Shown here piece by piece: positions 32,753 to 51,900 of a stretch of 62,005 nucleotides of DNA. The DNA is from a virus (lineage: Duplodnaviria > Caudoviricetes), in the IMG/VR virus record IMGVR_UViG_3300026848_000008, positions 1 through 62,005 of that record. One strand, 5' to 3'. Position numbers and translations under genes: made by a program. The stretch's first letter is position 1. Each line of letters opens with the position of its first letter. The notes under the pieces are model-generated. The model did not search any database. It saw nothing but the letters and a program-made list of their open reading frames with translations, and was not told the DNA's origin.

Positions 32753-32767
32753 GAACAAAACGTGAAC
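32753..32767 (+). promoter_or_regulatory. LexA (SOS) box, alphaproteobacterial type
   Basis: GAAC-aaaacgt-GAAC = GAAC-N7-GAAC upstream of the early operon. Confidence 0.7.
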
Positions 32768-32845
32768 AAACAGGGTAAAACCCTGTTTTCCGGCCGAAAA
32801 ATGCCGTTTCGTATGTGTAGCTCAAAACATGCACGCACGCAAGCC

Positions 32846-32873
32846 CCCGCGCGGTCCCAAAGGGATTTTTCCG
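32846..32873 (+). repeat. 28-bp early promoter-like repeat, copy 1
   Basis: CCCGCGCGGTCCCAAAGGGATTTTTCCG; 27/28 identical to 35715-35742. Confidence 0.85.
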
Positions 32874-32947
32874 GTCGGCGGCGACCATCGCATTCAGCGG
32901 GTCGCTCGCCGGGGGATTCTCCCCCGCACATCACAGGAGCACGCACG

Positions 32948-33415
32948 ATGACCGATTTCACCCTCATGACCGCTCGCGAAATCCGTGACGAAGTCACGGC
33001 CAACCCCGAGCTGCTCGCCGACGCCTTGCGCGTCTTGGCCCTTCGGGCCATGCGCCCGAAGCCCCGGACCCCGAGCGTTGACGCGCTCGCGGAGCTGATT
33101 CCGGGCACGACGCGCTACGCGGACATCCGGTCCAAAGGACCGGAGCGCTACAAGGAATGGCTCGCCGAGGTGCAGGCCATCGCGGCCCCGCTGGCGGGCG
33201 TGGCGAAGCCGAAGGCTTCGGCCAAGGCGAAGTCCGCTGCGAAGCCGAAGGCTTCGACCAAGGCGAAGGCTGCCGCGAAGCCGAAGGCTTCGGCGAAGCC
33301 CGCTGCGAAGCCGAAGGCTTCGGGCGGCATCGACCACGCCGAACTCGCGAAGGCCATGGGCGTGGAGCCGGAGGCTCTCGGCGCGATGGTCAAGTTCTTC
33401 GCGGCGCTCGCGTAA
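32948..33415 (+). CDS. Protein with histone-H1-like AKPKA repeats
   Basis: CAGGAG SD; Lys/Ala-rich segment with four AKPKAS units. Confidence 0.75.
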   Translation: MTDFTLMTAREIRDEVTANPELLADALRVLALRAMRPKPRTPSVDALAELIPGTTRYADIRSKGPERYKEWLAEVQAIAAPLAGVAKPKASAKAKSAAKPKASTKAKAAAKPKASAKPAAKPKASGGIDHAELAKAMGVEPEALGAMVKFFAALA

Positions 33416-33429
33416 ACGCACCCTCGCGA

Positions 33430-33470
33430 GACTGGCGCGGCCCCTTCGGGGGTCGCGCCTTTTCGTGTTG
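33430..33470 (+). terminator. Hairpin/terminator repeat, copy 1
   Basis: GGCGCGGCCCC-TTCG-GGGGTCGCGCC-TTTTCGTGTTG; near-identical to 34481-34520. Confidence 0.75.
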
Positions 33471-33497
33471 CTGGAACCCACGAAAGGACACGCACAC

Positions 33498-33863
33498 ATG
33501 GAAACACAACGTGAACAAATGCTCAACGCACGTCGCCGGGCAACGCAGCAGCGTCGCGCGGCCCGCGCGTTGGAGGACGCGCTCGCCGAACTCGAACTGC
33601 GCAAGGCCACGCGTGACCGCGCTTGGCGTCGCTACGACCGCTACATGGCGTTCCTCGCGTCGCCCGTTGGCGGCCTGCTGGCCAACCACGGCCCGTCTTG
33701 GCTCGGGCATTGGCTCGCCTGCGAGTTGGTTGACCGCCTGATGAACCGGGCGCTCCACGCGGAGCGCAAGGTGCGTCGTCAGGACGACCGGGCCTCGCGG
33801 GCGTTGGCCCGCAGCCTCGGCGTAGCCGAGGACAACGTCGTGCCGCTCAAGGCCGCGTCGTGA
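33498..33863 (+). CDS. Hypothetical early protein
   Basis: AAAGGA SD then METQREQ. Confidence 0.65.
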   Translation: METQREQMLNARRRATQQRRAARALEDALAELELRKATRDRAWRRYDRYMAFLASPVGGLLANHGPSWLGHWLACELVDRLMNRALHAERKVRRQDDRASRALARSLGVAEDNVVPLKAAS

Positions 33864-33976
33864 CCGAGCGCGTCGTCACGGCGTCGCTCGCCGCCATGCT
33901 GGGCGTCGGCTTTGCCGTCGCCTGCATCACCTCGTTCGTGCTTGGCTTCGCCATCGGCACGGGCGTTCCCTGCTGA
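33860..33976 (+). CDS. 38-aa membrane peptide (not in ORF track)
   Basis: GTGA overlap; MTERVVTASLAAMLGVGFAVACITSFVLGFAIGTGVPC. Confidence 0.5.
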   Translation: MTERVVTASLAAMLGVGFAVACITSFVLGFAIGTGVPC

Positions 33977-34003
33977 CCCAACCCACCGCAAGGAGCAACA
34001 CAC

Positions 34004-34273
34004 ATGCGTAACCTCATTCGCCCCGACCACGCCCTCGACCTGCTCGACAGCCTGCCGCACAAGCAACGCCTGCGCGTCTGCGAGGAGCAGGTGCATCGCT
34101 GGAGCGTCGTCGCTCACGAGCATCCCACGCATCGCTCACAAGACGCCCACGCCTTCTGGCTGGAAACCTTGGCCATGGAGGAAGGCGACCCGCACATTGC
34201 CGACGTGGTCATGGACGTGGTCGGTTCCCACCGGAAGCTCACGCCGCGTCAGGCACGGAGGATCGTGCGTTGA
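34004..34273 (+). CDS. Hypothetical early protein
   Basis: AAGGAG SD, phage codon usage. Confidence 0.65.
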   Translation: MRNLIRPDHALDLLDSLPHKQRLRVCEEQVHRWSVVAHEHPTHRSQDAHAFWLETLAMEEGDPHIADVVMDVVGSHRKLTPRQARRIVR

Positions 34274-34464
34274 GCGCCGGGCAGCCGAGCCTCGACGAAG
34301 GCGTCTTCGTGTTCGACACGATCACGGGCCAGTATTGGAGCCGGGAGCATGGCTGGGCCGATCTGGCTCACGCCGACGCCCGCTGGCCCCACGAGGTGCG
34401 TGACCTCGCGGAAGGCTTCGTGACCGTGAAGCCCGGCGACGTGCTGCTGCAAACGTCCGCCTAA
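34270..34464 (+). CDS. Hypothetical early protein
   Basis: TTGA overlap with previous gene. Confidence 0.55.
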   Translation: MSAGQPSLDEGVFVFDTITGQYWSREHGWADLAHADARWPHEVRDLAEGFVTVKPGDVLLQTSA

Positions 34465-34480
34465 CCACTCGCACCACGAC

Positions 34481-34520
34481 GACTGGCGCGGCCCCACAGG
34501 GGTCGCGCCTTTTCGTGTTG
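34481..34520 (+). terminator. Hairpin/terminator repeat, copy 2
   Basis: GACTGGCGCGGCCCC-ACA-GGGGTCGCGCC-TTTTCGTGTTG. Confidence 0.75.
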
Positions 34521-34554
34521 GTGCAAACCAATCCACCACACAGGAGACAACGCA

Positions 34555-34983
34555 ATGACGGATGAACACAGCGCCGACACAGGCATGGCGGAAATCACCG
34601 CACGCCTGATGCGGCATCACGCGGGAGCAGTCGTGTTTCCCATGGCGGGCATGATGTATGTCTTCCTCGTTGAAGGCGAGGACGGCGCTCCCGACCCCGA
34701 GTGGCTCGGGGCAATCCCGTCCTTCCTGAACGCCCACGACTCGCGTCCAATGGCCGAGCAAATCCACGAAAACTACGCTCACGGCGGGGGCTGGCGTCCG
34801 CAGGGCGGCTTCACGCTGGACGTGAACGAGGAAGGCCGCGTCGTGCTGTCCGGGTCCGACCCGCGCCCGTATCGGGCCATCTGCTTCACGCAGTTGCGCA
34901 ACGAGACCCTCGTGCTCTTCGAGAGCGCGTGGACCGCCATCATCCAGCCCGACGGGAGCATGGAGGTCTCGCGTCTGGACTGA
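34555..34983 (+). CDS. Hypothetical phage protein
   Basis: CAGGAG SD; NYAHGGGW...IIQPDGSMEVSRLD pattern. Confidence 0.7.
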   Translation: MTDEHSADTGMAEITARLMRHHAGAVVFPMAGMMYVFLVEGEDGAPDPEWLGAIPSFLNAHDSRPMAEQIHENYAHGGGWRPQGGFTLDVNEEGRVVLSGSDPRPYRAICFTQLRNETLVLFESAWTAIIQPDGSMEVSRLD

Positions 34984-34989
34984 ATCCGC

Positions 34990-35028
34990 TTGACACCCAA
35001 AGGTGGGTGTCGCACACCTGCGACACCC
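34990..35028 (+). promoter_or_regulatory. Sigma70-type promoter with overlapping operator-like palindromes
   Basis: TTGACA at 34990; ACACC-CAAA-GGTGG; GGGTGTCGCA-N4-TGCGACACCC. Confidence 0.6.
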
Positions 35029-35060
35029 ACCACACACCTCACCACCACAGGAGAATTACC

Positions 35061-35453
35061 GTGACCCATCCCACCTACAATATTGACGACGCTTTCAGCG
35101 TGCTCGCAGCGGACGCCGAAGAGCTGACGCAGGAGCGCTGCGAAGCCGTGCTGCGCGAGCACACCGACATTCCCGAAGACCGCATCCCCGTGGCCGCATC
35201 GGAAATCATGGCGACCGCCCACCAAACACTCCGCGCCTACAAGGAAGCGTTCCTCGTGGTCCAGCAAGTTGCCGAAATCCTCGGGCACGACGCACCCACC
35301 TGCGAGGTCTCTCGGGGGAGCGTCTGGAAGGATGACGGCAAGACGCACACCGACCTGTTCGTGACCCTTCAGACCACGGGGGCTGACGGCCATACCATCG
35401 GCAAGACCACGCACCACCTGCGCCGCTTCGAGGGGGAGCAGGACGATGTTTGA
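35061..35453 (+). CDS. Hypothetical early protein
   Basis: CCACCACAGGAG then GTG start. Confidence 0.65.
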   Translation: MTHPTYNIDDAFSVLAADAEELTQERCEAVLREHTDIPEDRIPVAASEIMATAHQTLRAYKEAFLVVQQVAEILGHDAPTCEVSRGSVWKDDGKTHTDLFVTLQTTGADGHTIGKTTHHLRRFEGEQDDV

Positions 35454-35691
35454 GGCCGCCATCACCACGCTCGTCGTCACTGCTGGCCTACTGGCCATCG
35501 GTGTGATCGTATCCAGCCTCTCGACCGCCCTCCGGCGGTCGAGAACCCTGCGGCAAGACGCGATCCTCTCGCGAGACAGCCAGCTCTATGTGCGTGGCAC
35601 GCACAATCGCCACGGCCTCTGGCTTCGGGAGAACGGCTCGCTCGGCTCTCGCGTGAGCGCCGCCAGCCAGCCCTCTCCTCGCGTGAAATAA
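35446..35691 (+). CDS. Small membrane-anchored protein
   Basis: N-terminal hydrophobic helix. Confidence 0.55.
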   Translation: MFEAAITTLVVTAGLLAIGVIVSSLSTALRRSRTLRQDAILSRDSQLYVRGTHNRHGLWLRENGSLGSRVSAASQPSPRVK

Positions 35692-35714
35692 CAGGCACGC
35701 AGGAAACAGGCAGG

Positions 35715-35742
35715 CCCGCGCAGTCCCAAAGGGATTTTTCCG
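35715..35742 (+). repeat. 28-bp early promoter-like repeat, copy 2
   Basis: CCCGCGCAGTCCCAAAGGGATTTTTCCG upstream of the SPFH-AAA-vWA genes. Confidence 0.85.
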
Positions 35743-35782
35743 TGCGGGGCAATCCCACCAAACCGAAGGAGAACCAGCCATC

Positions 35783-36028
35783 ATGGCAAAGACCCTGTTC
35801 CTTGTGATCGTCCTGTTGATCGTCGGCTTCGGCGTGATCGGCGGGCTGTTGTGGATCGCCTCTCTCTTCGAGAGGCTCGACGACGAGGACTACCAGATTC
35901 GCAGGCGAGCCGCCCGCGAATATCGTGATGCACGGGATGACCTGCGACACGAGAAGACCATGGCCGAAGTCCGCGAGGACGAGAAGGCCAAGGCCAAGGC
36001 TGCTGCGCGTCGCAGCCGCCGCAAGTGA
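35783..36028 (+). CDS. Small membrane-anchored protein
   Basis: AAGGAG SD; TM helix then charged tail. Confidence 0.65.
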   Translation: MAKTLFLVIVLLIVGFGVIGGLLWIASLFERLDDEDYQIRRRAAREYRDARDDLRHEKTMAEVREDEKAKAKAAARRSRRK

Positions 36029-36051
36029 ACACCACCACAAGGAGAAACAAC

Positions 36052-36822
36052 GTGTTCAAATACGCAATCCTCGGCGTCGCCGGGATCATGACGCTCGGCC
36101 TCGCCACCTGCTCCATGGAAACCGTTGACACGGGCCATCGGGGCGTCTTCGTGACCTACGGCAAGCCGACTTCGCAGGTGTCGGAAGGGCTGCACTTCTA
36201 CAACCCGCTCACCACGGACCTCGTGGAAATGGACGTGCGCCAACTCAAGTCCACCAAACAGACCTCGGCCTACACGCAAGACGTGCAGCAAGCGGCCATC
36301 CGCTACTCGCTGACGTTCTCGCTCGACCCCGACCAAGCCATGCGTGTGTATCAGACGGTCGGCACTGATTGGCCGAGCCAACTGGTCCCGCAGGTGGTCG
36401 AGCAGACCATCAAGGACGTGTTCGGCAAGAGCGAGGCAGTCAAGGACACGATCAACAATCGCGGCGCTGTCCAGCAGGCCATCGTGGCCGAGTTGGCGGC
36501 GGCTCTCGCCAAGCGCAGCGTGATCCTGCACGGCTTCGAGTTGCGTGACATCGCCTTCTCGGAAGCCTTCGAGCAGGCCGTCGAGGCCAAGCAGGTGGCT
36601 GTCGAGAACGCCAACGCAGCCCGCAACAGGACGGTCGAAATCGAGGAGCGCGCGAAGCAGCGCATCATCGCCGCCAAGGCCGAAGCCGAGGCGATGCGCA
36701 TCAAGACGGAGGCCCTCGCCGGGTCTCCCAAGCTCGTCGAATACGAGGCTGTCCAGAAGTGGAATGGCGAGTTGCCGAAACAGATGCTCGGCGGTGCCGT
36801 CCCGTTCATCAACATCGACTGA
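36052..36822 (+). CDS. SPFH/band-7 (prohibitin-like) protein
   Basis: N-terminal TM, VDTGHRGV..TYGK, EGLHF, AVEAKQVA, AKAEAEA, KWNGELP. Confidence 0.92.
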   Translation: MFKYAILGVAGIMTLGLATCSMETVDTGHRGVFVTYGKPTSQVSEGLHFYNPLTTDLVEMDVRQLKSTKQTSAYTQDVQQAAIRYSLTFSLDPDQAMRVYQTVGTDWPSQLVPQVVEQTIKDVFGKSEAVKDTINNRGAVQQAIVAELAAALAKRSVILHGFELRDIAFSEAFEQAVEAKQVAVENANAARNRTVEIEERAKQRIIAAKAEAEAMRIKTEALAGSPKLVEYEAVQKWNGELPKQMLGGAVPFINID

Positions 36823-36879
36823 TTACCCGCCCGGCCCGAAGGGCCGGGCACCCCACCACGACGTAAAGGAGAATGGCCA

Positions 36880-39051
36880 ATGGCCCCCACAAAAACCGAC
36901 GTGCTCATGGTCGCCATGCTGGCAGGAGAGCAGGTGAAATTCGATGACAAGCGCAGGCTCCTGCGCATCGCCTTCGACATGTGGCAGGACTCGTCCGAGC
37001 GCATCGACCCGACGGCAATCGGGGAGATCATGCGCCGCTCGCCCCTGTTCTCGGCGACCGGCACTCCGACCACGGTGAAGGTGCGCTGCACGGCAGCCGG
37101 ACTGCGTGACGTGCTCACGAACGACGCCATCTACCAGCTTTGCACCGGGTTTGTCGCGAGCATCCAACTGATGCAAGCCCTCCAAGACCCCTCCACTTAC
37201 GGCGTGACGAACCCGAAAACGAGCACCGGCTACAACATCGGCGAAGTGGAGCGTTCCCATTGGGTTCCTCGCTCCGTCCACGACCACTCCAAGGCGAACC
37301 GCGTCGCCTTCAATAACTTCCTCAAAGACGAGGCGCATATCGCCAAGATGCTCGCCCGCATCCCCTCGGCGAAGTCGCGCGACTTCGTGGCGGGGATGCT
37401 CTCCGCAGAAATCGTGAGGCGCGGCCTCGCTACCGTAATCCCCATTCCCACCGCCAGCAAAGGAGCAACCAGCATGGCAACCAAGACCGCACTCAAGACC
37501 CTTCCCGCAATCGACGCGCTCGAAGCGGCCAACATCTTCCTCATTCGTCTCGGCCTTGCCGAGCACTCCTACGCACCCCTCGAAGAACAGGTCGCCAGCT
37601 TCATCGAATGGCTCGAAGCGAACACCGAAACCACGGGCGCGAAGGCCATGGTCAAGGCGGTTCTCGCCGTGCTCATGGCGCGTGAAAGCCTGCCCGCTCA
37701 CGGCACCGAAATGGACGGCGTCATCAGCGGCCTTCGCGCAGAAGCCGTGACAGTCCTCCGCGCCTTCCTCGCACACATCGAGGACGCGGCGAGCGGCGAA
37801 GACGCGGAAGGTGGTGCGCCCGTGGCCTCGGGCCTGCCGTCCCCGCTCGACCTGACCATCGACCCGTCCGCGCAGGCCATGCTCGATGCCGTGCTGGCTT
37901 CGGCCAAGATGCCGGGTATCGGGGCCATCAAGGACTACGTCGATACGCTGTCCAAGTTTGCGTCCGACGTGGATGCCGAGCTGGTCGATCTGCGCAACAT
38001 GGCCAAGCGCGCCAAGACGATGGCGGCCATGACCCCGAAGGTTGAAGGCGCAGCCACTGCCTCTGGCAAGCCGGGCGAACTGCCGGAAGGCAAGGTGGTC
38101 ATGCGCAAGGCAGCCGACCTCTTCGGCATCACCGGGGCTTCGGCCAAGGCGTTCTCGTTCGAGGTGCCCTCGTTCGAGTGGGCCTTCCCGCACCCCGACG
38201 TGCCCAGCGTGGACGCCGAGTATATCTTCCGGCCCGAAGCGCTGCTCACCGTCCTCTTGTCGCTGCTCAAGAGCGACAAGACGTGGATCAAGGGGCACAC
38301 CGGCACCGGCAAGTCCACGTTGATCGAGCAGGTTGCTGCGCGTCTCAACTGGCCCTGCCTGCGCATCAACTTCGACAGCGACATCACGCGCATGGACCTC
38401 GTCGGCAAGCAGGACTTGGTCGTTGACGCCACGAGCGGAAAGACCGTGACCAAGTGGGTGGACGGCGTGCTGCCGCACGCCCTCCGCAACGGGTTCATCC
38501 TGCTGCTCGACGAAATCGACTTCGTTCGCCCGGACATTGCCTACGTCTTGCAGAGCGTCCTCGAAGACCGGGGCATGACGCTCAACGAGAACGGCGGCGA
38601 AGTCATCAGGCCGCAGCCCATGTTCCGCCTCTTCGCCACCGCCAACACGACGGGGCAGGGCGACGAGTTCGGCATGTATCAGGGCGCACGTCCGCAGAGC
38701 CTCGCCTTCCTCGACCGCTTCACCGTGTGGATCGACGTGGACTACCTGCCGAAGGACCGGGAGAAGGCGTTGCTCTGCAAGCGAGTGCCGGAACTCGACA
38801 GCGGCGCTGCTGATACGATCATGCGCTACGTTGCCGAGCATCGGCAAGCCTTCACCGGGGCGCAGGTTCTTCAACCTATCTCGCCGCGCGGCATCACCAC
38901 CTTGGCCGAACGCTACGTTGCCTTCCTCGACATTTATGGGGGCGACCGGAAGCGGGCGTTCAAGACTGCCTTCCAGCAGACGATGACCGCAAGGGCCAGT
39001 TCGCAAGACGCGGTCGTGCTGAACGGCCTCGTGAACAAGCTGCTCAAGTAA
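36880..39051 (+). CDS. CobS-like MoxR-family AAA+ ATPase with N-terminal extension
   Basis: GHTGTGKS, LLLDEIDF, FRLFATANT.GQGD, FLDRF, ISPR. Confidence 0.9.
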   Translation: MAPTKTDVLMVAMLAGEQVKFDDKRRLLRIAFDMWQDSSERIDPTAIGEIMRRSPLFSATGTPTTVKVRCTAAGLRDVLTNDAIYQLCTGFVASIQLMQALQDPSTYGVTNPKTSTGYNIGEVERSHWVPRSVHDHSKANRVAFNNFLKDEAHIAKMLARIPSAKSRDFVAGMLSAEIVRRGLATVIPIPTASKGATSMATKTALKTLPAIDALEAANIFLIRLGLAEHSYAPLEEQVASFIEWLEANTETTGAKAMVKAVLAVLMARESLPAHGTEMDGVISGLRAEAVTVLRAFLAHIEDAASGEDAEGGAPVASGLPSPLDLTIDPSAQAMLDAVLASAKMPGIGAIKDYVDTLSKFASDVDAELVDLRNMAKRAKTMAAMTPKVEGAATASGKPGELPEGKVVMRKAADLFGITGASAKAFSFEVPSFEWAFPHPDVPSVDAEYIFRPEALLTVLLSLLKSDKTWIKGHTGTGKSTLIEQVAARLNWPCLRINFDSDITRMDLVGKQDLVVDATSGKTVTKWVDGVLPHALRNGFILLLDEIDFVRPDIAYVLQSVLEDRGMTLNENGGEVIRPQPMFRLFATANTTGQGDEFGMYQGARPQSLAFLDRFTVWIDVDYLPKDREKALLCKRVPELDSGAADTIMRYVAEHRQAFTGAQVLQPISPRGITTLAERYVAFLDIYGGDRKRAFKTAFQQTMTARASSQDAVVLNGLVNKLLK

Positions 39052-39151
39052 CTCGCCTCATGCGTGGGGGGTTGCTCCTTTCCCCTCACGCAGCGCGCCG
39101 GGGTGCCGCGCAACCAAGCACCCCACCCATCACACTCACATGGAGAACACC

Positions 39152-41439: not shown

Positions 41440-41440
41440 C

Positions 41441-43888: not shown

Positions 43889-43890
43889 CA

Positions 43891-43930: not shown

Positions 43931-43944
43931 ACAGGAGAATGAAC

Positions 43945-44133: not shown

Positions 44134-44813
44134 CGCACATGGAGACTTGGCACGAGGACGGGCGCGTCTTCGTGGTCGGTGACGTGCATGGCTGTTACGA
44201 CATGCTCATGGAACAACTGGATGCGGCGGGGTTCGACCCCGCCGCAGGCGACCACCTGTATTCGCTGGGCGATCTGGTGGACCGGGGGCCGGACAGTCGG
44301 CGCGTCTTGGAGTTGCTCGACGAGCCATGGTTCGATGCAGTCATGGGCAACCACGAGCACATGATGATCGAGGCGTGGCAGGGCGATCCCGAGGCGGGCC
44401 GGTTGCACGTTCGCAACGGCGGTCAGTGGTTCGGGGACGAAACGGATGACCAACGCCGTAGGCTGGCCATGCTGGCGCTGCACCTGCCGATTGCCCGGAC
44501 CGTCCACTCGCCGAGTGGACGCAGCTACGGCTTGGTCCATGCCGACCTGTGGGGTCTCGACTGGCGACGCTTCATTCGCGATCTGGAGGGTGGTGGCCGG
44601 GAGGCCAAGGCCATCCGTAATTTTGCCATGTGGAGCAGGGACACCTTCGGGGCCATGACGCGGGGCGACAGCATCCTGCCGGTTGCTGGCGTGGACACGG
44701 TCATGATGGGGCACAACGCCCTCAAGACGCCGGTGAGCCGGGCCAATCTGGTGTGGATGGACACGGGCGCAGGGTTCAGAGGCGGAAAGCTGACGATAGT
44801 CGAGTTGGACTAG
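44130..44813 (+). CDS. Ser/Thr protein phosphatase (lambda NinI/PrpA-like metallophosphoesterase)
   Basis: GDVHG, GDLVDRGP, GNHE, GH and DTG motifs. Confidence 0.93.
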   Translation: MTHMETWHEDGRVFVVGDVHGCYDMLMEQLDAAGFDPAAGDHLYSLGDLVDRGPDSRRVLELLDEPWFDAVMGNHEHMMIEAWQGDPEAGRLHVRNGGQWFGDETDDQRRRLAMLALHLPIARTVHSPSGRSYGLVHADLWGLDWRRFIRDLEGGGREAKAIRNFAMWSRDTFGAMTRGDSILPVAGVDTVMMGHNALKTPVSRANLVWMDTGAGFRGGKLTIVELD

Positions 44814-44886
44814 GGTCTGTTCTAGGATGGCTCAAGGGTGTATCACTAATGTTACAGGAGATAGGTGACTCACGGAGGATTATGGC

Positions 44887-45348
44887 ATGAACAATACGGA
44901 AACTATCACGGAACTGCGCGTCGATTTCGCGCGTCTTGAGGGGCGCGTCGATGCGATGGAGCGCATCCTCGGCAATGTCTGCGAGGTCGTGGCAAAGGCT
45001 GGCAACCACGGGCCATTGCCGCGCATGACCACGAAGCAACACGCCGCACTCCAGATGTTGTTGAGGGGTGCGAGCAACGCCGAGATTGCCGAGCGGTTCG
45101 GCGTGACCATCAACACGGCCAAGGTCTATGTGCGGAGCCTCTTCTCCAAGTTTGGTGTGAACAACCGGGCCAGCGTCGTGGCCAAAGCCAAGATGGCCTT
45201 CGAGGCCATGCCCGCCAGCGAGTATATACGGTGGAGCGGGGGCCTGCCCAAGACTTGGGATCGGGACTGGAGCGCGCCCGACGCATACAAGGCGCTCTAC
45301 CACCACAGCTTGAACGCAGACGATGGAGAATGTGAGGATGGGACTTAA
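44887..45348 (+). CDS. LuxR-type HTH regulator
   Basis: MTTKQHAALQMLLRGASNAEIAERFGVTINTAKVYVRSLFSKFGV. Confidence 0.88.
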   Translation: MNNTETITELRVDFARLEGRVDAMERILGNVCEVVAKAGNHGPLPRMTTKQHAALQMLLRGASNAEIAERFGVTINTAKVYVRSLFSKFGVNNRASVVAKAKMAFEAMPASEYIRWSGGLPKTWDRDWSAPDAYKALYHHSLNADDGECEDGT

Positions 45349-46354
45349 TCTCAAGAGGGACAAACGCGGCGTCTGGCACGCCGACGGCTACCTGCGGGGC
45401 CAGCGGGTGCGGCGAAGCATGATGACCAAGGTGAAGGCCGTTGCCGCCGAGAAGGCGGAGGCCATGGAAATGTCGGTGGCGCGTGGCCTGCCCCTGTTCT
45501 CCAAGTTTCCGAGGGCCACGGTGGAGGCAGCCTGCGATCTGTATGAGCGCCACAAGAACTTGAGTTGGGGCAGCCTGTCTGACGTGCGGTTGTTCAGCCG
45601 CAGTCTTGGGGCTGTGCGCCTGCGCGATCTGACGGGAGCCATGCTGCTCGACTTCGTGGACCGGGAGAAGGCAGGCTGCAAGGACAGCACCAAGCGCAAG
45701 GCGCTCACCATGGCCATGGCGGTGGTGAACCATGCGGCGGAGCGTGGCTGGTGCGATCCCATTGCCGTGCGTAAGCCTGCTGACAACGGGAGCCGGAGCC
45801 GGTGGCTGACCACGGCGGAGCTTGATGCGTTCCTGCTCAAGGCCCCCGAGTATCTGTGGCCCGCCTTCGTGTTTCTGGCCATGACCGGGGCGCGGGCAGG
45901 CGAGTGCGTGGCGCTCGACTGGAGCCATCTGTGGCAGGATACGGACGGCCAGTGGCACGCGCGCCTGTGGACCCGGAAGGGGAAGGGCATCATGCGGGAG
46001 CGGAGTGTTCCGCTCAATCCGAGGGCGGTCGGCGCGCTGGCCGAGGCCGCGCGCCTCAACCGGCAGGGCGGTGTGCCCATGGAGAAGCGCCGGGGGCCGG
46101 TGTTTCGGAATGTGTATGGAAGCAGGCTGCGCGTGGGCATCCTGTCGTCCAAGGTGAAGGGCATTGCCGAGGCGGCGGGCCTCGAAGACGTGAGGCTGCA
46201 CGATCTGCGGCGCACCTTTGCGAGCACCCTTGTCCAGAGGGGTGTCCCGCTCAACCTCGTGGCCGAACTGCTGGGTCATAGCGGGTTGGGGCAGGTATCT
46301 GCCTATGCGCACCTTGCGCCGAGCGCGAAAAGCACGGCTGTCCTCGCCATTTGA
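45338..46354 (+). CDS. Tyrosine recombinase (second, internal)
   Basis: TGARAGE, HDLRR, LLGH, SAYAH catalytic motifs intact. Confidence 0.92.
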   Translation: MGLNLKRDKRGVWHADGYLRGQRVRRSMMTKVKAVAAEKAEAMEMSVARGLPLFSKFPRATVEAACDLYERHKNLSWGSLSDVRLFSRSLGAVRLRDLTGAMLLDFVDREKAGCKDSTKRKALTMAMAVVNHAAERGWCDPIAVRKPADNGSRSRWLTTAELDAFLLKAPEYLWPAFVFLAMTGARAGECVALDWSHLWQDTDGQWHARLWTRKGKGIMRERSVPLNPRAVGALAEAARLNRQGGVPMEKRRGPVFRNVYGSRLRVGILSSKVKGIAEAAGLEDVRLHDLRRTFASTLVQRGVPLNLVAELLGHSGLGQVSAYAHLAPSAKSTAVLAI

Positions 46355-46473
46355 GGTGAGGGGCTTGACGATTTGCAAATAATTTTTGGGCAGGGGTCTT
46401 GTCTCACTTGTGCGACTCGGGCATGGGTGTTGTTCGGGTGTTGGAGAGACACCCCCGGCTTGAAAGGGGTGCA

Positions 46474-46680
46474 ATGAACGAGGATTATCGCAGGATCGTG
46501 GATGAACTGGCGGCCATGAGCGGGCGCATCGCGGCGCTGGCCGGGACCGTGCCGGTCGGCACGTTCATTGGGGATGCGCTGGTCGATCTGGCTGACAGTG
46601 TGCGGTCGCAGGTCGAGGAAATGCAGGTGGCGCTTGCGGCCATCGACTGGTCGGCGGTCACGGGCTGGGCCGAAGAGTAA
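46474..46680 (+). CDS. Hypothetical protein
   Basis: AAAGGGG SD; TTGACG upstream near 46365. Confidence 0.55.
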   Translation: MNEDYRRIVDELAAMSGRIAALAGTVPVGTFIGDALVDLADSVRSQVEEMQVALAAIDWSAVTGWAEE

Positions 46681-46684
46681 GTTG

Positions 46685-46699
46685 GAACACAAGGAGAAC
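46685..46699 (+). promoter_or_regulatory. LexA box overlapping RBS
   Basis: GAAC-acaagga-GAAC. Confidence 0.55.
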
Positions 46700-46703
46700 G
46701 AAG

Positions 46704-47009
46704 GTGAGTGACGCGAGTAACGTGATTGTCGATGAAGAGGCTATTGCCGATGTTGTGCAGGATGGTGAGGCGTTCGAGGCAGCGCCCGTGAAGGTGACGG
46801 AAGGCGAGCCGAAGGTGCAGGCCGTGCCGCTCTTGCAGGTCTTTGCGCTGGTCGGCGAAGATCAGCAGGTGCTCGACCTGCGCTTCGAGTGGGGCAGCGC
46901 CGTGCCGGGTCCGGCTGTGGGCGCGCGGACGCTCAACGAAATCAGGACGCGCCTCGATGATGTTGCCGTGACCAGCGAAATGGTTGCCCGCCTGATGGTG
47001 CGCGGCTGA
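46704..47009 (+). CDS. Hypothetical acidic protein
   Basis: AAGGAG SD. Confidence 0.6.
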   Translation: MSDASNVIVDEEAIADVVQDGEAFEAAPVKVTEGEPKVQAVPLLQVFALVGEDQQVLDLRFEWGSAVPGPAVGARTLNEIRTRLDDVAVTSEMVARLMVRG

Positions 47010-47047
47010 CAGTTTTCCCGACGGGTATCAGTGACCGTTGGGTAGGG

Positions 47048-47080
47048 GCGGGGTCGGCTGAAAGGTCGGCCCCGTTTTCG
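47048..47080 (+). terminator. Intrinsic terminator-like hairpin
   Basis: GCGGGGTCGGCT-GAA-AGGTCGGCCCCGT followed by TTTCG. Confidence 0.55.
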
Positions 47081-47101
47081 TTCCACCACAGGAGATTTGG
47101 C

Positions 47102-47347
47102 ATGGGCCATTGGAATTACAGGGTGTTGCACCACCACTCGGCGAGTGGTGCCTTCGAGCCGTATTATGCGTTGCACGAGGTGTTCTATGGGGATGATGGG
47201 AAGCCCAACGGGTTTACCGAGCATCCGATTGATTTTGTTGCGGACGATAGCGAGGGGGCCGACAGGATCGAGAGGGGTCTTGGCTTGGCCTTGAGTGATG
47301 TGAAGCATCGCAGCGTCTTGAAGGTGGTCGATGGGAGGTTCGTATGA
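47102..47347 (+). CDS. Hypothetical phage protein
   Basis: CCACCACAGGAG RBS; WNYRV...LHEVFY pattern. Confidence 0.7.
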   Translation: MGHWNYRVLHHHSASGAFEPYYALHEVFYGDDGKPNGFTEHPIDFVADDSEGADRIERGLGLALSDVKHRSVLKVVDGRFV

Positions 47348-47757
47348 CGAACATCGTGCCGCCGCCCAAGGGCGTCTGGGGTGAGCGCGAGGGAATCATG
47401 GAAGACCACCGGAAGTGGGAGCGTCAGCAGGCGGAAGAGGCCCAGCGCATCTTTGATATGTATCTGGAAAGCGCGAAGACGGGAAAGCCTTTGGAGTGGG
47501 CCAAGGCACCTTTCGGCGGCGAGCCGCCTGAACACCTCGACTCCTATCCCGTGGACGACCGGGAGCGTCGTGGCAGGGGGCTGAACAAGGAGGAAGCCGA
47601 GGGCCTTGAGGTTGTGCTGGAGGCCGAGAAGAGGGTCGCGGAGGCCGAGGCGCAGCGCGACGAACTGGCGGTCAAGTTGGGGGAGGCGCTCGCCCGGATT
47701 GCCGTCTTGGAGAAGGCCGTCTTGGAGAAGGAGCTGGGGGAGAAGGACCATGATTGA
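47344..47757 (+). CDS. Hypothetical coiled-coil protein
   Basis: ATGA overlap, GGAGG SD. Confidence 0.6.
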   Translation: MTNIVPPPKGVWGEREGIMEDHRKWERQQAEEAQRIFDMYLESAKTGKPLEWAKAPFGGEPPEHLDSYPVDDRERRGRGLNKEEAEGLEVVLEAEKRVAEAEAQRDELAVKLGEALARIAVLEKAVLEKELGEKDHD

Positions 47758-48301
47758 GGTGGAGCGAAAGAAATTTGCGGAGGCAGATTGGAGGGGTTCC
47801 GGCGGGCCATGGGATAGTGAGCCGGACCTCGTCTCGTGGATCAGCGGGGAGGGGTATTGGTGCCTTGCCCGCCGAGACCCCATGTCGGGCGTCTGGCTGG
47901 GCTACATCGCCGTCCCCAAGGGCCATCCGTGGGATGGGGCGGAGGACGAGTATGACCCCCGGCTGCGGGACATCTGTATTCATGGCGGCGTGACCTATAT
48001 GAGCAGACGGATGCCTGCGGCAGAGGGAAACGCATGGCCCGTCGATTTGGAGGGGACTGTGCTCGGGTTCGATTGTTCCCATGCGGCGGACATGGTCCCT
48101 GCGTGGCACGAGGGTATGCGTAAAATTTTTGGGGGGGCGACGTATCGAAACATCGAATTTGTTGAGGGGCAATTGAAGGAATTGTCCCGGCAGGCCGGGG
48201 AGGCGGCTGTTGCGGCGAGGCGCGCGCGCCTGTTGGAGTTGCTGGATCGGAGGACGTTTGACCTGCTCGGCGGGGTGTTGGCCGGAGTGAGCGGGAAGTA
48301 G
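47750..48301 (+). CDS. Hypothetical phage protein
   Basis: GYIAVPKGHPW, HGGVTY, GFDCSH motifs. Confidence 0.7.
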   Translation: MIEVERKKFAEADWRGSGGPWDSEPDLVSWISGEGYWCLARRDPMSGVWLGYIAVPKGHPWDGAEDEYDPRLRDICIHGGVTYMSRRMPAAEGNAWPVDLEGTVLGFDCSHAADMVPAWHEGMRKIFGGATYRNIEFVEGQLKELSRQAGEAAVAARRARLLELLDRRTFDLLGGVLAGVSGK

Positions 48302-48331
48302 GTTTTTGTTTTTTCACCACAGGAGAATGAA

Positions 48332-48733
48332 ATGAGTGAAGGTCATGAAGGTCATGAAGGTCATGAAGGCCATGAAGGTGGCGGCGTCGTGGTTGGCCGG
48401 TTTGGTGGGCGTCCCGTGGAGGTGCGGGCGGAGGGCCAGCGGATGACCAACGCCGAGGACTTTGCGGATGCGCCCATGAGCGTCGGGGAGCATCGCGCTG
48501 CGCGCGATGCGGACTCGCGTTCGTGGACGCCGAGGGATGCGCTGGTTGACGTGTTGCGGCGGGTTGACCGGGGCGAACTGAACATGTCGGACGTGCTGAT
48601 TATCGAGGTGGTCGATGAAACGGAGGATGACGGCCTGCCGGGATTTTCGTTCAACTATACGATGGCTGGCAAGCATGGCTCGACGTTTATGATTGGGGCG
48701 CTGGAGCGAGCCAAGACGACGATGCTCGACTGA
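48332..48733 (+). CDS. Hypothetical protein with N-terminal (EGH)x4 repeat
   Basis: CACCACAGGAG RBS; 9-bp tandem repeat at 48337-48379. Confidence 0.65.
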   Translation: MSEGHEGHEGHEGHEGGGVVVGRFGGRPVEVRAEGQRMTNAEDFADAPMSVGEHRAARDADSRSWTPRDALVDVLRRVDRGELNMSDVLIIEVVDETEDDGLPGFSFNYTMAGKHGSTFMIGALERAKTTMLD

Positions 48734-48819
48734 AAGAGTTGTCTTGCCACAAGGAGAGGGCCGCGCTATGCGCGGCCCTGCCATGATCGTTGATCTGTGG
48801 TTCTCCTGTGGTGGGAGAG

Positions 48820-48852
48820 AAAGGCGCGGACCCGAAGGGGTTCGCGCCTTTC
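48820..48852. terminator. Bidirectional terminator between convergent operons
   Basis: AAAGGCGCGGACCC-GAAG-GGGTTCGCGCCTTT. Confidence 0.75.
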
Positions 48853-48864
48853 ATCGTTTCTGCG

Positions 48865-49422
48865 CTATTTTTTGGCGTCTTGGTTGGCCTGCTGGACTTG
48901 CCGGACTTGCTGCCACCACGCCTGCCAGCCGGTGGCGGTGACGTAGGCTACCGCGCAGGCGTCGAGGTCGGCGGCGGGGACAGGAACGAGGGCATCGGAA
49001 GGGGTTCGATGAGGGCCGGAGGCGGGACCGGCAGGGGCCGGGTCGGCAGGGTCGCCGGGACCACTTCCACCCGGCGGGTGGAAGTCGATGCGCAGGCGCT
49101 CAAGGCGAGCGCGGTAGTCGCGAGCAGAAGCAAGGGCCATGGAGAGGCGGTCTTCGAGGGCATTGGTGTTCTCCGTCTGGATGCGTTCGTAGGCGAGGCG
49201 GTCCTGCTCGGCCTTGAGGGTTGCGGCGGCGGTGGCCTCCGCCGTCTTGATGGCGATGTCGGCTTCGAGGTTGGAGTTGAGGACGATCTGGGCCTCGTAG
49301 GAGGATTTGTAGTGGGCCGTCTGGGCTTTCTGGGCCATGAGGAGGGCGGTGAGCGTGAGGATGGAGGCGGCGGCGAAGGCCGCGCCGATCTTGAGGAGGA
49401 TCGAGGAGGGCAGGGGGATCAT
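48865..49422 (-). CDS. Rz: Rz-like inner-membrane spanin
   Basis: N-terminal TM, coiled coil, Pro-rich C-terminus; contains a nested lipoprotein gene. Confidence 0.75.
   Translation of the reverse strand: MIPLPSSILLKIGAAFAAASILTLTALLMAQKAQTAHYKSSYEAQIVLNSNLEADIAIKTAEATAAATLKAEQDRLAYERIQTENTNALEDRLSMALASARDYRARLERLRIDFHPPGGSGPGDPADPAPAGPASGPHRTPSDALVPVPAADLDACAVAYVTATGWQAWWQQVRQVQQANQDAKK
48948..49163 (-). CDS. Rz1: Rz1-like outer-membrane lipoprotein spanin (embedded)
   Basis: Signal peptide with lipobox LSAC, Pro-rich mature part, alternate frame inside Rz. Confidence 0.75.
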   Translation of the reverse strand: MPSKTASPWPLLLLATTALALSACASTSTRRVEVVPATLPTRPLPVPPPALIEPLPMPSFLSPPPTSTPAR

Positions 49423-49751
49423 CGGGGGGTGGAGTCCTCTTCGGTTTCGAGGAGTTTGTGGCCGTCGTCTTGGGCTTCGAGGGTGACGAGCTTGCCGATG
49501 GAACCTTTGATGCGGCCCACGGGGCCGCCGATGGCCAGCGAGACGAGCACGATGCCGATGCCGCCGAGCGCGCAGTAGAGCGAGACGCCGAGGTAGGTGA
49601 GGCGGCGCGGCTCCATGGCGGGCGTCCACTCGCCGAGCCACACGATGGCGATCAGGAGGATGGCGATGGCCGTGCAGGCCACGCCGCCGCCGAAGAGTGC
49701 CCACGACATCATGGCGCGAACGGTGCGGGTCGTCTGGAAGGGGATGCGCAT
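49419..49751 (-). CDS. Putative holin (two TM helices)
   Basis: Two hydrophobic segments, charged C-terminus, ATGA-coupled to Rz. Confidence 0.55.
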   Translation of the reverse strand: MRIPFQTTRTVRAMMSWALFGGGVACTAIAILLIAIVWLGEWTPAMEPRRLTYLGVSLYCALGGIGIVLVSLAIGGPVGRIKGSIGKLVTLEAQDDGHKLLETEEDSTPR

Positions 49752-49817
49752 GATGGGTGTGTGCGCGCTGTGGCGCGCGCGGTCGTCCCCGCCCGCCTGC
49801 TGGCCTGCTGGGGCCGT

Positions 49818-50129
49818 CTAGTTGGGGCCGGGGTCGGTGGCCACGGTGACGTGTTCGATGGTGCGCTCGCCAACGAAGAGGATCGGGGCGTCGAAGTAGA
49901 TGGTCGTGGGTCCGCCGAACTTGAGGTGGCGGGAGCCGGAGACGAGGTCGATGGTGATCGTGCCGCCGCTCTTCATGCGCAGCTCGAAGACCTTGCTGTC
50001 CTCGGTGAACTGGTAGTGTTCGGAGGGGGTGAGGTCGAGTTCGTAGTGTTCGGGGAGGGCGCGCGGGTGCGGCGCGTCTTCGAGGTGGTCGGAGGGTTCG
50101 AGGTAGTCGCGGCCATACATGGTGGTCAC
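49818..50129 (-). CDS. Hypothetical protein
   Basis: Coupled to the resolvase gene. Confidence 0.55.
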   Translation of the reverse strand: MTTMYGRDYLEPSDHLEDAPHPRALPEHYELDLTPSEHYQFTEDSKVFELRMKSGGTITIDLVSGSRHLKFGGPTTIYFDAPILFVGERTIEHVTVATDPGPN

Positions 50130-50542
50130 TCCGTCTTGGTGGTGGGTCGGAAGGGTCGGGCGAGGAAGGCCTCGTAGAAATCGAGGAAGGCGTCGAGGCG
50201 CATGAGGACGAAGGCGGAGCCAAGGGGTTGGTGGTTGCGGCGGTTGATGACCACGGGAATGTCGGGTGCGCCGGACTTGAGGAGGGAGCTCTCGGCTTGG
50301 CGCATGGCGTCGGGGAAGGAGAGTTTCTCGACGCGCTTGGCCTCGACGTGGAGCGAGGGTGTGCCGGAGAGGTCAGCGCCGCCCGAAAGGCCATGGATGA
50401 CGCCGCCGCCCGAAAGGGGCGCGCGGCGAATGTCGAGGTTGAGGCGAGCGGCCATGTAGGCGGCGAGTTCGCGCTCGAAGAGGTCGCCCCGCGCTTTCAT
50501 GGAGCGGCCATTGGTGCGGCGCTTCTTGGGGGCGTCAGTCAT
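50126..50542 (-). CDS. PD-(D/E)XK nuclease, probable Holliday-junction resolvase
   Basis: KARGDLFERELA...GADL...LHVEAKR...PVVINRRN. Confidence 0.8.
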   Translation of the reverse strand: MTDAPKKRRTNGRSMKARGDLFERELAAYMAARLNLDIRRAPLSGGGVIHGLSGGADLSGTPSLHVEAKRVEKLSFPDAMRQAESSLLKSGAPDIPVVINRRNHQPLGSAFVLMRLDAFLDFYEAFLARPFRPTTKTE

Positions 50543-50702
50543 CGAGGATGGCCAGCGTGGTCTGGAGGGCGGTGGTGGATTGGAGGTGGGCGCGCAGGGC
50601 CAGCGGGTAGTTCTGCTGGATGAGGGTTGCGTGGTCGGCCAGCAGGGCCAGCAGGCGGTGGAGAGCAGGGCTGCCGGAGGGGAAGGGGGCGGATTCAGTC
50701 AT
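50535..50702 (-). CDS. Small hypothetical protein
   Basis: Overlaps both neighbours; start MTESAPF. Confidence 0.45.
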   Translation of the reverse strand: MTESAPFPSGSPALHRLLALLADHATLIQQNYPLALRAHLQSTTALQTTLAILDD

Positions 50703-50994
50703 CGTTGTCGTATCCTCGCTTGAGGCGGCAGGAGCGGCAGAAGAACCAGCCCTTGGGGCGAGTGCTCTTGTCGCCGCAGGTGAGGCAGGGCCGGTTCCAC
50801 GTCTTGACGAGGTGGGTCTGGGCCACGGCGTATTTTGCGCCGGGGAAGTTCTGGAGGCCGAGGCGGGCCAAGATGCGCTTGGCGGTGTCCGTGCAGACGC
50901 CGAGGCGGGCGGCGATGTCTTTGTGGGAGGTGCGGGAGTGATTGGCGTGGAGCCACTCAAGGTCGTCTTGGGAGAGTTCGACTTTGCGTGGCAT
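50695..50994 (-). CDS. HTH + C4 Zn-finger regulator (GcrA-like architecture)
   Basis: LSQDDLEWL...SHKDIAARLGVCTDTAKRILARLGL then CLTC...FCRSC. Confidence 0.6.
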   Translation of the reverse strand: MPRKVELSQDDLEWLHANHSRTSHKDIAARLGVCTDTAKRILARLGLQNFPGAKYAVAQTHLVKTWNRPCLTCGDKSTRPKGWFFCRSCRLKRGYDNDD

Positions 50995-51002
50995 GAGTGC
51001 GC

Positions 51003-51017
51003 GTTCCCGTCCTGTTC
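51003..51017 (-). promoter_or_regulatory. LexA box 8 nt upstream of the GcrA-like gene
   Basis: GTTC-ccgtcct-GTTC; TTGACA on minus strand at 51049-51054. Confidence 0.72.
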
Positions 51018-51033
51018 TTGGGACACCCAGAAC

Positions 51034-51047
51034 ACACCGTGAGGTGT
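51034..51047. promoter_or_regulatory. Operator-like palindrome ACACC-N4-GGTGT
   Basis: Immediately downstream of the -35 hexamer; same palindrome at 54445-54458. Confidence 0.6.
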
Positions 51048-51068
51048 ATGTCAAGATGTGGGGAGCAA

Positions 51069-51144
51069 GCGCCCGTCCGGGGGACGGGCGCGCAGCGCTC
51101 GGCGGTTGGGCGGAGCAGCGAAGGCCCGTCCGGGGGACGGGCCT
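51069..51144. repeat. Two CCGTCC-GGG-GGACGG palindromes
   Basis: 51069-51091 and 51122-51144; inverted third copy at 51752-51772. Confidence 0.85.
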
Positions 51145-51207
51145 GTAGCGTTGGCCGGAGGTCATGGTCGTCGGCCCGCCGCCCCACGGGCGGGCCGCCT
51201 CTTGAGG

Positions 51208-51507
51208 TTAGGCGGTGGGCGTCTTGCGGTGTCGCCCTTGGAGGCAGCCGCAGGATTTCTTGTGTCCGTCGATCATGAGTTGGACGTTGGCGACCGCCTC
51301 TTTTCCGCAGTCGCAGAGCACGAGACATTCCGTGATATGGAAGTAGTTGGGCGCGATCACGGTGAGCATCCCGTAGCGCTCGCCCTTGGTCACACGCGGG
51401 CGCGGGGTGGTCGGGAGGCCGACCCGCTCGCGGTGGTTGGGAGGGAGTTGGCGGCGTCGGAAAAGGTTGCGTTTCTTGCGGAGCTTTGCGCGTTCATCGT
51501 TGGTCAT
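51208..51507 (-). CDS. Zn-binding domain like the N-terminus of HNH/AP2 homing endonucleases (no nuclease domain)
   Basis: GERYGMLTVI...CLVLCDCG...KSCGCL. Confidence 0.65.
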   Translation of the reverse strand: MTNDERAKLRKKRNLFRRRQLPPNHRERVGLPTTPRPRVTKGERYGMLTVIAPNYFHITECLVLCDCGKEAVANVQLMIDGHKKSCGCLQGRHRKTPTA

Positions 51508-51569
51508 CGGGCTTTCCTGTGGGCTGTGGTGGTTCTTTTTTTTAGGGTGTCTCGCGGGTGTTGACAATC

Positions 51570-51900
51570 GCTAAAGGATCAATCATGAGTTTGAACTCTG
51601 AATTGATCCCAAGAAATTCGTGGCGGCTTCGCCGCACGGTCGATCCGACCGGGCGGTGGCCCCTCTCCGAGGGGCCGGGGCCACCGGCAAGGTGGCCGAA
51701 GGTGCCCCAGCGTAGATTTTTTTGGATTTGTAGAATTGACGGTTAACGCTTGGACCGTCCCCCGGACGGTCCCGCGCTACTCTCGAATTTGTTCATGTTC
51801 TTTGGAAACTTAAGGCTTTGAGGCTTGAGCGTTCAAACTCATGAATTTTGGTTTGTTCTTTTTTTGTTCTTTGAACTACCCGCCCACACTCTCCCACGAG
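51570..51900. other. AT-rich non-coding region, candidate replication origin/control region
   Basis: T-tracts, palindromes and a LexA box near the PrimPol-helicase gene. Confidence 0.4.
51855..51869. promoter_or_regulatory. LexA box
   Basis: GTTC-ttttttt-GTTC. Confidence 0.6.

Follow-up and report, generated by a model that had tools for sequence, protein, structure and literature searches.

The DNA analysed here is a 62,005-nucleotide (nt) stretch, the whole of which we call the window; it is positions 1 to 62,005 of the IMG/VR record IMGVR_UViG_3300026848_000008, which is typed as a provirus and has a CheckV completeness of 100. Judged by its sequence, it is a temperate podophage of the CRP-810 type, integrated at the tRNA-Arg(CCT) gene of a Sphingomonadales-like alphaproteobacterium: its gene order and its terminase, SU10-type capsid and portal, primase-polymerase, CobS/CobT and LuxR-integrase genes are those of CRP-810-type phages. 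The nearest isolated phage is Roseobacter phage CRP-810 (terminase 53% and primase 59% identical), and the two genomes are collinear. The subject of this report is a set of direct repeats, GAAC-N7-GAAC (GTTC-N7-GTTC on the other strand), of the type known as the alphaproteobacterial SOS box, the operator of the host repressor LexA (Erill et al. 2004, as cited in PMC6473078). The initial annotation of this DNA had placed four exact copies at 32753, 46685, 51003 and 51855, all outside genes, and we found all four at these coordinates, in intergenic DNA and in the contexts it described. It missed seven further exact sites, all within coding sequence (2935, 16720, 18191, 26136, 28096, 28327 and 37253). 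The intergenic boxes are as follows.

32753-32767, plus strand: LexA-type box 1, GAACAAAACGTGAAC, in a 407-nt divergent intergenic region

46685-46699, plus strand: LexA-type box 2, GAACACAAGGAGAAC, in a 23-nt intergenic gap, overlapping the ribosome-binding site of gene 46704-47009

51003-51017, minus strand: LexA-type box 3, GAACAGGACGGGAAC, ending 8 nt before ATG 50994

51855-51869, minus strand: LexA-type box 4, GAACAAAAAAAGAAC, 129 nt upstream of the ORF85 start (ATG 51998), in a stretch of 54% GC

Box 1 sits between two hairpins; to its left the packaging/late operon starts leftward at 32541, and to its right the first early unit starts rightward at ATG 32948. Box 2 covers AAGGAG, 5 nt before the GTG start codon at 46704, and the genes on either side of it have no homolog in any fetched locus of a relative. 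Box 3 lies about 32 nt downstream of TTGACA (51054-51049), in a promoter whose parts follow one another in the order TTGACA, a phage palindrome described below, box 3, 8 nt and ATG. Box 4 lies about 10 nt past the 3' arm of a structured element. Boxes 3 and 4 have three neighbouring features, one of which encodes a helix-turn-helix (HTH) protein of 99 amino acids (aa).

50695..50994, minus strand: HTH protein with a CxxC...CxxC zinc ribbon, 99 aa, first gene of a leftward unit that includes RusA

51998..52255, plus strand: ORF85, a small protein encoded convergently with the primase gene; its gene lies downstream of box 4 and is a candidate for SOS control

51576..51850: structured element of 275 nt with a 14-bp closing stem, between an HNH gene and box 4

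Exact GAAC-N7-GAAC sites number 11 in the window as a whole, compared with 1.73 expected from dinucleotide shuffles (0 of 100 shuffles reach 11) and 3.3 expected from the actual counts of the GAAC and GTTC tetramers. This excess is only modest, because spacers that keep the codon phase reach similar whole-window counts (14 at N26 and 9 at N38). In the 4783 nt of intergenic DNA, four same-strand pairs occur at the 7-nt spacing versus zero to two at each other spacer from 0 to 30, and a first-order Markov simulation gave a mean of 0.19 intergenic N7 sites, with none of 1000 simulations reaching four. The intergenic set was taken from our own gene map and still includes some coding DNA, for example gene 35061-35453; the intergenic test is therefore conservative. 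The four boxes are real, non-random, specific in their spacing and intergenic, and the earlier contention that so many intergenic sites are unlikely by chance is borne out. Since about 0.2 intergenic sites are expected, one chance match among the four would be unsurprising, and box 2, the likeliest of them to be fortuitous, may be such a match. The one-mismatch copies that had been listed at 23896-23910 and 44819-44833 do exist, but one-mismatch sites are not enriched as a class: the window holds 47 (exact sites included) versus 49 expected, and at least as many turn up in 63 of 100 shuffles.

The boxes match the LexA operators of the probable host family. The host nucleoside transporter gene (nupC) beside the prophage has its best matches in Erythrobacteraceae, at 72% identity, and 41 genomes of that family made up our host-family set. 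GTTC-N7-GTTC precedes lexA in 29 of 30 host-family loci, recA in 26 of 30 (25 of them in the range from about -120 to -155) and uvrA in 27 of 30 (for the most part at -37), in agreement with the initial assignment of the motif to the alphaproteobacterial LexA type. We scored both strands of the window, 124,000 positions, with a class-balanced matrix made from 83 lexA, recA and uvrA operators of this family; an earlier matrix built from lexA and recA only was dropped, as it was over-fitted to two operators and penalised box 3. The five top positions were box 4 (27.4), box 1 (21.1), a coding site (19.8), box 2 (19.0) and box 3 (15.8). Host operators themselves score 16.3-30.0, with leave-one-class-out medians of 15.3-19.7; the score of box 4, the maximum for the window, exceeds the host medians. 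The extended form of the uvrA operators (GAACAAATCTGGAACAAAC) is the same as that of box 1 (GAACAAAACGTGAACAAAC) and box 4 (GAACAAAAAAAGAACAAAC), and box 3, read as GTTCCCGTCCTGTTCT, resembles the recA operators (GTTCCnCTCTTGTTCT). Phage and host boxes have the same core, spacing and flanking preferences (GAACA...gGAACA); they differ in that the host copies front repair genes and the phage copies are carried on a mobile element.

The sole close relative found in sequence collections is a contig, L003, whose terminase is 80% identical and which spans box 1 only. L003 keeps box 1 as GAACAAAACCTGAAC, with 15 of 16 columns identical and the rest of the spacer only about half identical, and there too the box lies between two hairpins, of different sequence (the region is 32686-32790 in the window and 1-130 in L003). 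The hairpin 3' of the box is terminator-like in both directions. The L003 contig stops 39 nt past box 1, and three large family contigs stop 0.7-1.5 kb upstream of the terminase gene; these endings hint at a virion DNA end near box 1. Two A-rich look-alikes elsewhere in the window, at 22208 (N8) and at 23896 (one mismatch), are not kept in L003. The first of these, the pair GAACAAAAAAGAGAACAAAG with its 8-nt spacer, lies on the minus strand at 22208-22232, in the 256-nt leader of the capsid gene, where L003 keeps the A-run and loses the GAAC words. We had considered GAACAAA as a phage-specific promoter word (8 of its 12 copies are intergenic), and dropped the idea because the extra copies are not kept in L003 and because host uvrA operators share the form GAACAAA...GAACAAAC.

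It is against this background that we weighed the possibility that the boxes are not LexA operators in vivo and are a mix of chance and other roles, with box 2 serving as a ribosome-binding site, box 3 as part of a 5'-leader, box 4 as part of an origin-like or structured AT-rich element and box 1 as an element associated with the terminus or with packaging, near the genome end. Such roles fit the AAGGAG in box 2, the position of box 4 against the 275-nt structured element by the primase gene (with GTTC recurring nearby), the hairpins around box 1 and the contig ends near it, the A-rich GAACAAA words with an 8-nt spacer upstream of the capsid gene, and a wider family that is without boxes. They do not account for an excess confined to the 7-nt spacing, which no simulation reproduced, nor for boxes that make up four of the five top matrix scores in the window; L003, moreover, keeps box 1 but neither the N8 nor the one-mismatch A-rich variant, and the GAACAAA-type extended form is the one found at host uvrA. 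We consider this explanation unlikely.

The box 3 promoter also carries an operator-like element of the phage's own. Alignment of the regions upstream of homologs of the 99-aa gene identified the palindrome ACACC-N4-GGTGT, of which the window holds two exact copies, compared with 0.04 expected, and a further copy with a single mismatch.

51034..51047: palindrome ACACCGTGAGGTGT, exact, in the HTH/zinc-ribbon gene promoter, within the spacer that follows TTGACA

54445..54458: palindrome ACACCTTTGGGTGT, exact, over the -10/+1 region of the rightward TTGACC (54420-54425) promoter of the DUF7173-Sak4-SSB-exonuclease operon

34993..35006: operator-like palindrome ACACCCAAAGGTGG, one mismatch, overlapping TTGACA at 34990-34995, before gene 35061-35453 and the SPFH, CobS and CobT genes

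The copy at 54445 falls in a 115-nt divergent region (54385-54499) that adjoins the gene of a small Cro-like protein, and this region, from which the primase and Sak4 operons diverge, contains no LexA box and no matrix match of 15.5 or more. The palindrome recurs throughout the phage family. In 151 primase loci we counted 52 exact copies, against 1.7 expected, 37 of them no more than 250 nt before the Cro-like gene and another 10 in front of the 99-aa homolog. Exact copies precede the 99-aa gene homologs in 10 of 72 distinct upstream regions, with the N4 spacer only; if one mismatch is allowed, 39 of 93 distinct regions before the Cro-like gene and 11 of 72 before the 99-aa gene have the palindrome, again with only N4 enriched, and it is missing from all 65 regions before RusA and all 19 before LuxR. 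The 37 CobS loci contain 15 exact copies versus 0.5 expected, one copy or often a pair of them flanking TTGACC-17-TTATAC upstream of CobS, and CRP-810 shares the element, with one copy at 1725. We infer that an HTH protein encoded by the phage uses ACACC-N4-GGTGT as its operator. With a conserved palindrome on three early promoters of the TTGAC(A/C) type and small HTH proteins close by, the phage appears to have its own switch.

Two such proteins, in addition to the 99-aa protein, are candidates for binding the palindrome or regulating lysogeny.

54130..54384, minus strand: Cro/YdaS-like HTH protein, 84 aa, first gene of the leftward primase operon, candidate palindrome binder

44887..45348, plus strand: LuxR/GerE-type HTH protein (PF00196, E 3.8e-10), paired with integrase 1, second lysogeny-regulator candidate

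The 84-aa protein gives weak matches to YdaS, HTH and P22_Cro families and has homologs in 143 loci. The LuxR-integrase pairing is conserved in CRP-810 as gp13-gp14, and the CRP-810 paper proposes the LuxR-type protein as the switch (PMC11288001). The 99-aa protein has homologs in 105 fetched loci and only weak HTH matches in Pfam. The initial annotation had described box 3 as standing before a GcrA-like gene: the box is indeed at the promoter of a conserved gene, for an HTH/zinc-ribbon protein, but the GcrA label does not hold, since the protein gives no match to GcrA (PF07750) at E <= 5. Its one link to GcrA is a language-model lead: Atlas features gave hits to viral clusters, and in one of these, at rank 6, 53% of members carry GcrA. 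In CRP-810, the 99-aa protein has an unannotated HTH/zinc-ribbon homolog at 14026-14316, in an 800-nt gap of the record between gp22 and gp23.

None of these candidates contains an S24 peptidase domain. In the six frames of the 62-kb record, the stretch of the prophage covered here, Peptidase_S24 (PF00717) gave no match at E <= 1, and a phage repressor encoded in it therefore cannot sense DNA damage (RecA*) by cleaving itself. The window accordingly lacks a CI-like HTH+S24 protein, as had been noted, and the prophage can be called CI-less in that sense; the further suggestion that it has no phage repressor at all conflicts with the palindrome on three of its promoters and the abundance of that palindrome in relatives.

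That suggestion belongs to a reading in which there is no phage repressor and host LexA, acting at several promoters, holds lysogeny, in the manner of Bacillus phage GIL01, whose lysogeny is reportedly kept repressed by LexA together with the co-repressor gp7 (Fornelos 2011, 2015, cited in PMC9437464). GIL01 and the present phage are alike in having no CI-type repressor and in carrying host LexA boxes at phage promoters. The missing S24-type repressor, the four operator-grade boxes, the position of box 1 before a first early unit (32948-34983) that is free of the phage palindrome, and the failure of homology to reveal a maintenance repressor are all as this reading would predict, and the main text of the CRP-810 paper names no repressor (PMC11288001). 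Unlike GIL01, which relies on LexA as its DNA-binding repressor, this phage belongs to a family with a conserved operator of its own on three early promoters, together with conserved small HTH proteins; the divergent region before the replication and recombination operons has the palindrome and no LexA box. Furthermore, CRP-810 integrates (PMC11288001) without intergenic boxes, and a related provirus, G428, has none in 57 kb. Because relatives shown or inferred to lysogenise lack the boxes, the family can hold lysogeny without LexA sites. With its main divergent early promoter unboxed and its box-less relatives able to lysogenise, we judge it rather improbable that LexA is the only repressor, and the proposal in the initial annotation that host LexA holds lysogeny is not upheld.

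A related and equally improbable version would keep the palindrome system as a Cro-like lytic regulator only and make host LexA both the damage sensor and the principal maintenance repressor in this Sphingomonadales-infecting branch, by way of direct-repeat alphaproteobacterial boxes at three or four promoters. If true, lysogeny held by LexA would be without precedent among tailed phages of Alphaproteobacteria; the rewiring would be recent and datable, in an abundant family of marine phages of which the other members do without it.

We favour, with a confidence somewhat better than even, a layered switch in which the operator system of the family is supplemented by host LexA operators that this lineage has added and that give it an SOS input, LexA not being the sole hold on lysogeny. 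Early units would start at TTGAC(A/C) promoters carrying ACACC-N4-GGTGT, and the palindrome would be bound by a phage HTH protein, for which the 84-aa Cro-like protein, the LuxR-type protein by integrase 1 and the 99-aa HTH/zinc-ribbon protein are the candidates; the gene of the last would be operator-controlled across the family. The lineage would have gained host-type LexA operators at three or four positions between genes. As long as the lysogen is undamaged, LexA would occupy the +1 region of the HTH/zinc-ribbon promoter beside the phage operator, placing that promoter under double control, and it would also be bound 129 nt upstream of ORF85, in a geometry like that at host recA, and in the region that separates the first early unit from the packaging operon. 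On DNA damage, LexA would be cleaved and these promoters would open. The SOS signal could enter either through co-repression, as at PrstA of CTXphi, or through release of a small activator or antirepressor, as with Tum of phage 186 and in the Gifsy phages; in a phage without an S24 domain, a small gene lies directly behind a LexA box in two cases, the 99-aa gene behind box 3 and ORF85 behind box 4. ORF85 has a GC content at third codon positions (GC3) of 0.84 and a C-terminal motif that is conserved at the same place in relatives; Pfam gave it no family assignment and Atlas nothing usable. The analysis shows the boxes themselves, how far they exceed chance, how they match host operators, and the operator system of the phage; LexA binding, the promoter assignments and the gene product that would execute induction are inferred from sequence. 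The LexA boxes probably let DNA damage induce the prophage.

Several observations weigh against the layered switch. A consensus scan gave no sigma-70-type promoter near box 1, box 4 or box 3, and the promoter at box 3 has a poor -10. Box 2 overlies a ribosome-binding site within an operon. Box 1 has a T before its second GAAC, a base seldom found there in host operators (1 of 56 lexA/recA sites), and the score of box 3 is borderline, slightly below the host minimum of 16.3, on a matrix that derives from three operators of one bacterial family and whose non-core columns partly reflect shared descent. ORF85 and the 99-aa protein match no known antirepressor family in Pfam, PHROG or Atlas. CRP-810, which also infects an alphaproteobacterium, has four boxes versus 4.1 expected, all within coding sequence; boxes number 20 versus 37 expected in 81 terminase loci, 42 versus 37.8 in 80 primase loci and 10 versus 24 in 37 CobS loci, and provirus G428, which is 99% complete, has none. 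Finally, no close relative covering boxes 2-4 was found with primase, CobS and CobT queries in viral, metagenome and genome collections: all matches to these queries, including those from primase profile scans of viral and metagenome contigs, are at most 61% identical, a terminase query in genomes likewise gave no close relative over these boxes, and a primase search of 401 Sphingomonadales genomes returned distant matches only.

The question of whether the boxes are conserved in related phages, which the initial annotation had raised as a possible refutation, is answered in two ways: box 1 is kept in L003, but the wider family has boxes at chance level or not at all. Matrix matches of at least 19 number four in the 62 kb of the window and 13 in 2.54 Mb of family loci, rough counts in that the loci include duplicates. 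The LexA boxes do not appear to be a family trait and look like a lineage-specific SOS input.

Should LexA bind these boxes, it might do so for purposes other than induction, controlling SOS accessory genes (ORF85 and the orphan genes at 46474-47009) or early transcription in damaged cells. The genes by box 2 have no homologs in relatives, as is often the case for morons, and box 1 adjoins what is probably the first-entering end of the genome. Box 3, by contrast, is on the promoter of a core, family-wide HTH gene beside the phage operator and is hard to call accessory, and we find this interpretation improbable.

The arrangement at box 3 has a counterpart in CTXphi. There, host LexA and the phage repressor RstR reportedly act together to repress PrstA (Kimsey and Waldor 2009, cited in PMC9437464). 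In both phages a host LexA operator stands beside a phage repressor operator at a key early promoter, the phage's own repressor is not self-cleaving, cleavage of LexA would supply the SOS input, and the layout of PrstA resembles that of the box 3 promoter (TTGACA, phage palindrome, LexA box). CTXphi differs in being filamentous and in having a gammaproteobacterial host and a palindromic LexA box, whereas the present element is a tailed podophage with direct-repeat alphaproteobacterial boxes at three or four places and operators that are putative.

A second comparison is with phages in which LexA controls induction genes. Phages are known to have LexA sites at genes for antirepressors, co-repressors or lytic functions (PMC9437464), and LexA-repressed antirepressors are described for coliphage 186 (Tum), the Salmonella Gifsy phages and SPC32H (PMC3121763; Shearwin 1998 and Kim and Ryu 2013, cited in PMC9437464). 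These systems share with the present phage a repressor without S24 and a small gene behind a LexA box, here ORF85 and the 99-aa gene; they differ in that the small proteins here are not similar to any known antirepressor family.

CRP-810-type phages are described as globally distributed, most of them with an integrase, and with no repressor or induction signal reported in the main text, where the words 'LexA' and 'repressor' are absent (PMC11288001). Our literature search, which did not extend to the supplements of that paper, found no paper on LexA control of CRP-810-type phages or of a tailed alphaproteobacterial prophage. The use of LexA by mobile elements is already established, and the principle is not new. 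What the analysis adds is that a conserved palindromic operator marks the early promoters of CRP-810-type phages, and that one high-GC prophage lineage appears to have added host LexA operators to this system. If functional, these would account for a response to DNA damage in a phage that lacks a self-cleaving repressor, and they would be a clear case of the recent recruitment of a host regulator within a phage family, by way of the direct-repeat LexA site that is peculiar for Alphaproteobacteria.

The gene map, obtained by GC3-based calling with Pfam and PHROG scans, gives the remaining layout of the window.

1-32541, leftward: structural block with a 3176-aa virion protein, SLT lysozyme, tail fibres, SU10-type capsid and portal, large terminase and a zinc-ribbon protein

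32948-46354, rightward: early block with orphan genes, SPFH, CobS-like, CobT-like, phosphatase, LuxR/GerE regulator and tyrosine integrase

35061-35453, plus strand: 130-aa gene within the early block, GTG start at 35061, preceded by an AGGAGA ribosome-binding site

45323..46354, plus strand: tyrosine integrase 1, the family's own integrase (CRP-810 gp14), not at the junction in this prophage

up to 52 kb: mixed stretch with RusA, the 99-aa HTH/zinc-ribbon protein and an HNH endonuclease

52245..54179, minus strand: primase-polymerase/helicase gene, 59% identical to CRP-810 gp23, preceded by the 84-aa Cro/YdaS-like HTH gene

rightward from there: DUF7173-Sak4-SSB-exonuclease block, ending in integrase 2

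59253..60362, plus strand: tyrosine integrase 2, at the right prophage end, to which relatives give only weak matches (about 25% identity)

60373..60449, plus strand: tRNA-Arg(CCT), the integration site

60740-62005: host nucleoside transporter gene, 3' of tRNA-Arg

The window and CRP-810 have in common the early CobS/CobT block, the LuxR-integrase pair, RusA, the primase-polymerase, the Cro-like HTH protein, the Sak4/SSB/exonuclease genes, a giant virion protein, the SU10-type capsid and portal, and the terminase. They differ in that CRP-810 has no intergenic LexA-type box and integrates at tRNA-Thr with its LuxR-linked integrase, whereas this prophage is found at tRNA-Arg, next to a second integrase, and has an extra HNH gene between the primase and HTH/zinc-ribbon genes. 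Of the two tyrosine integrases in the window, it is integrase 2, and not the LuxR-paired integrase 1, that adjoins the tRNA-Arg junction; in provirus G428, the end of the record adjoins the integrase 1 gene. The 3176-aa virion protein (1-9531) gives no Pfam match and a weak PHROG match to internal virion proteins; its counterpart is the 2016-aa gp35 of CRP-810. The window is not the whole element, because synteny with CRP-810 places further genes left of position 1, and the prophage is predicted to extend there with a gp34-like gene and lysis genes.

The interval between boxes 3 and 4 has features of its own. The HNH endonuclease gene (51208-51510), which lies between the primase and 99-aa genes and has its own TTGTCA-17-TAAAAA promoter, looks like a lineage-specific insertion, because a homolog was found in only one fetched locus. 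Copies of a GC hairpin follow it at 51071-51089 and 51124-51142, with an inverted copy at 51755-51778. The 275-nt structured element folds with a z score of -7.6, none of 200 shuffles folding as well, and no Rfam match was found within 50900-52300. At the equivalent place in relatives, flanked by the homologs of ORF85 and the 99-aa gene, there is also a long closing stem, of different sequence. The element may be a structured RNA or a replication origin.

Two sequencing runs, X1 and X2, contain this DNA; both are of DNA, no RNA run is listed with it, and neither adds independent evidence on evolution or expression. Contigs of X1 matched only in pieces of 18-25 nt. X2, which has a marine metagenome label, carries positions 32400-52100 of the window with a single difference (47054 T>G); the same phage is therefore present in a second sample.

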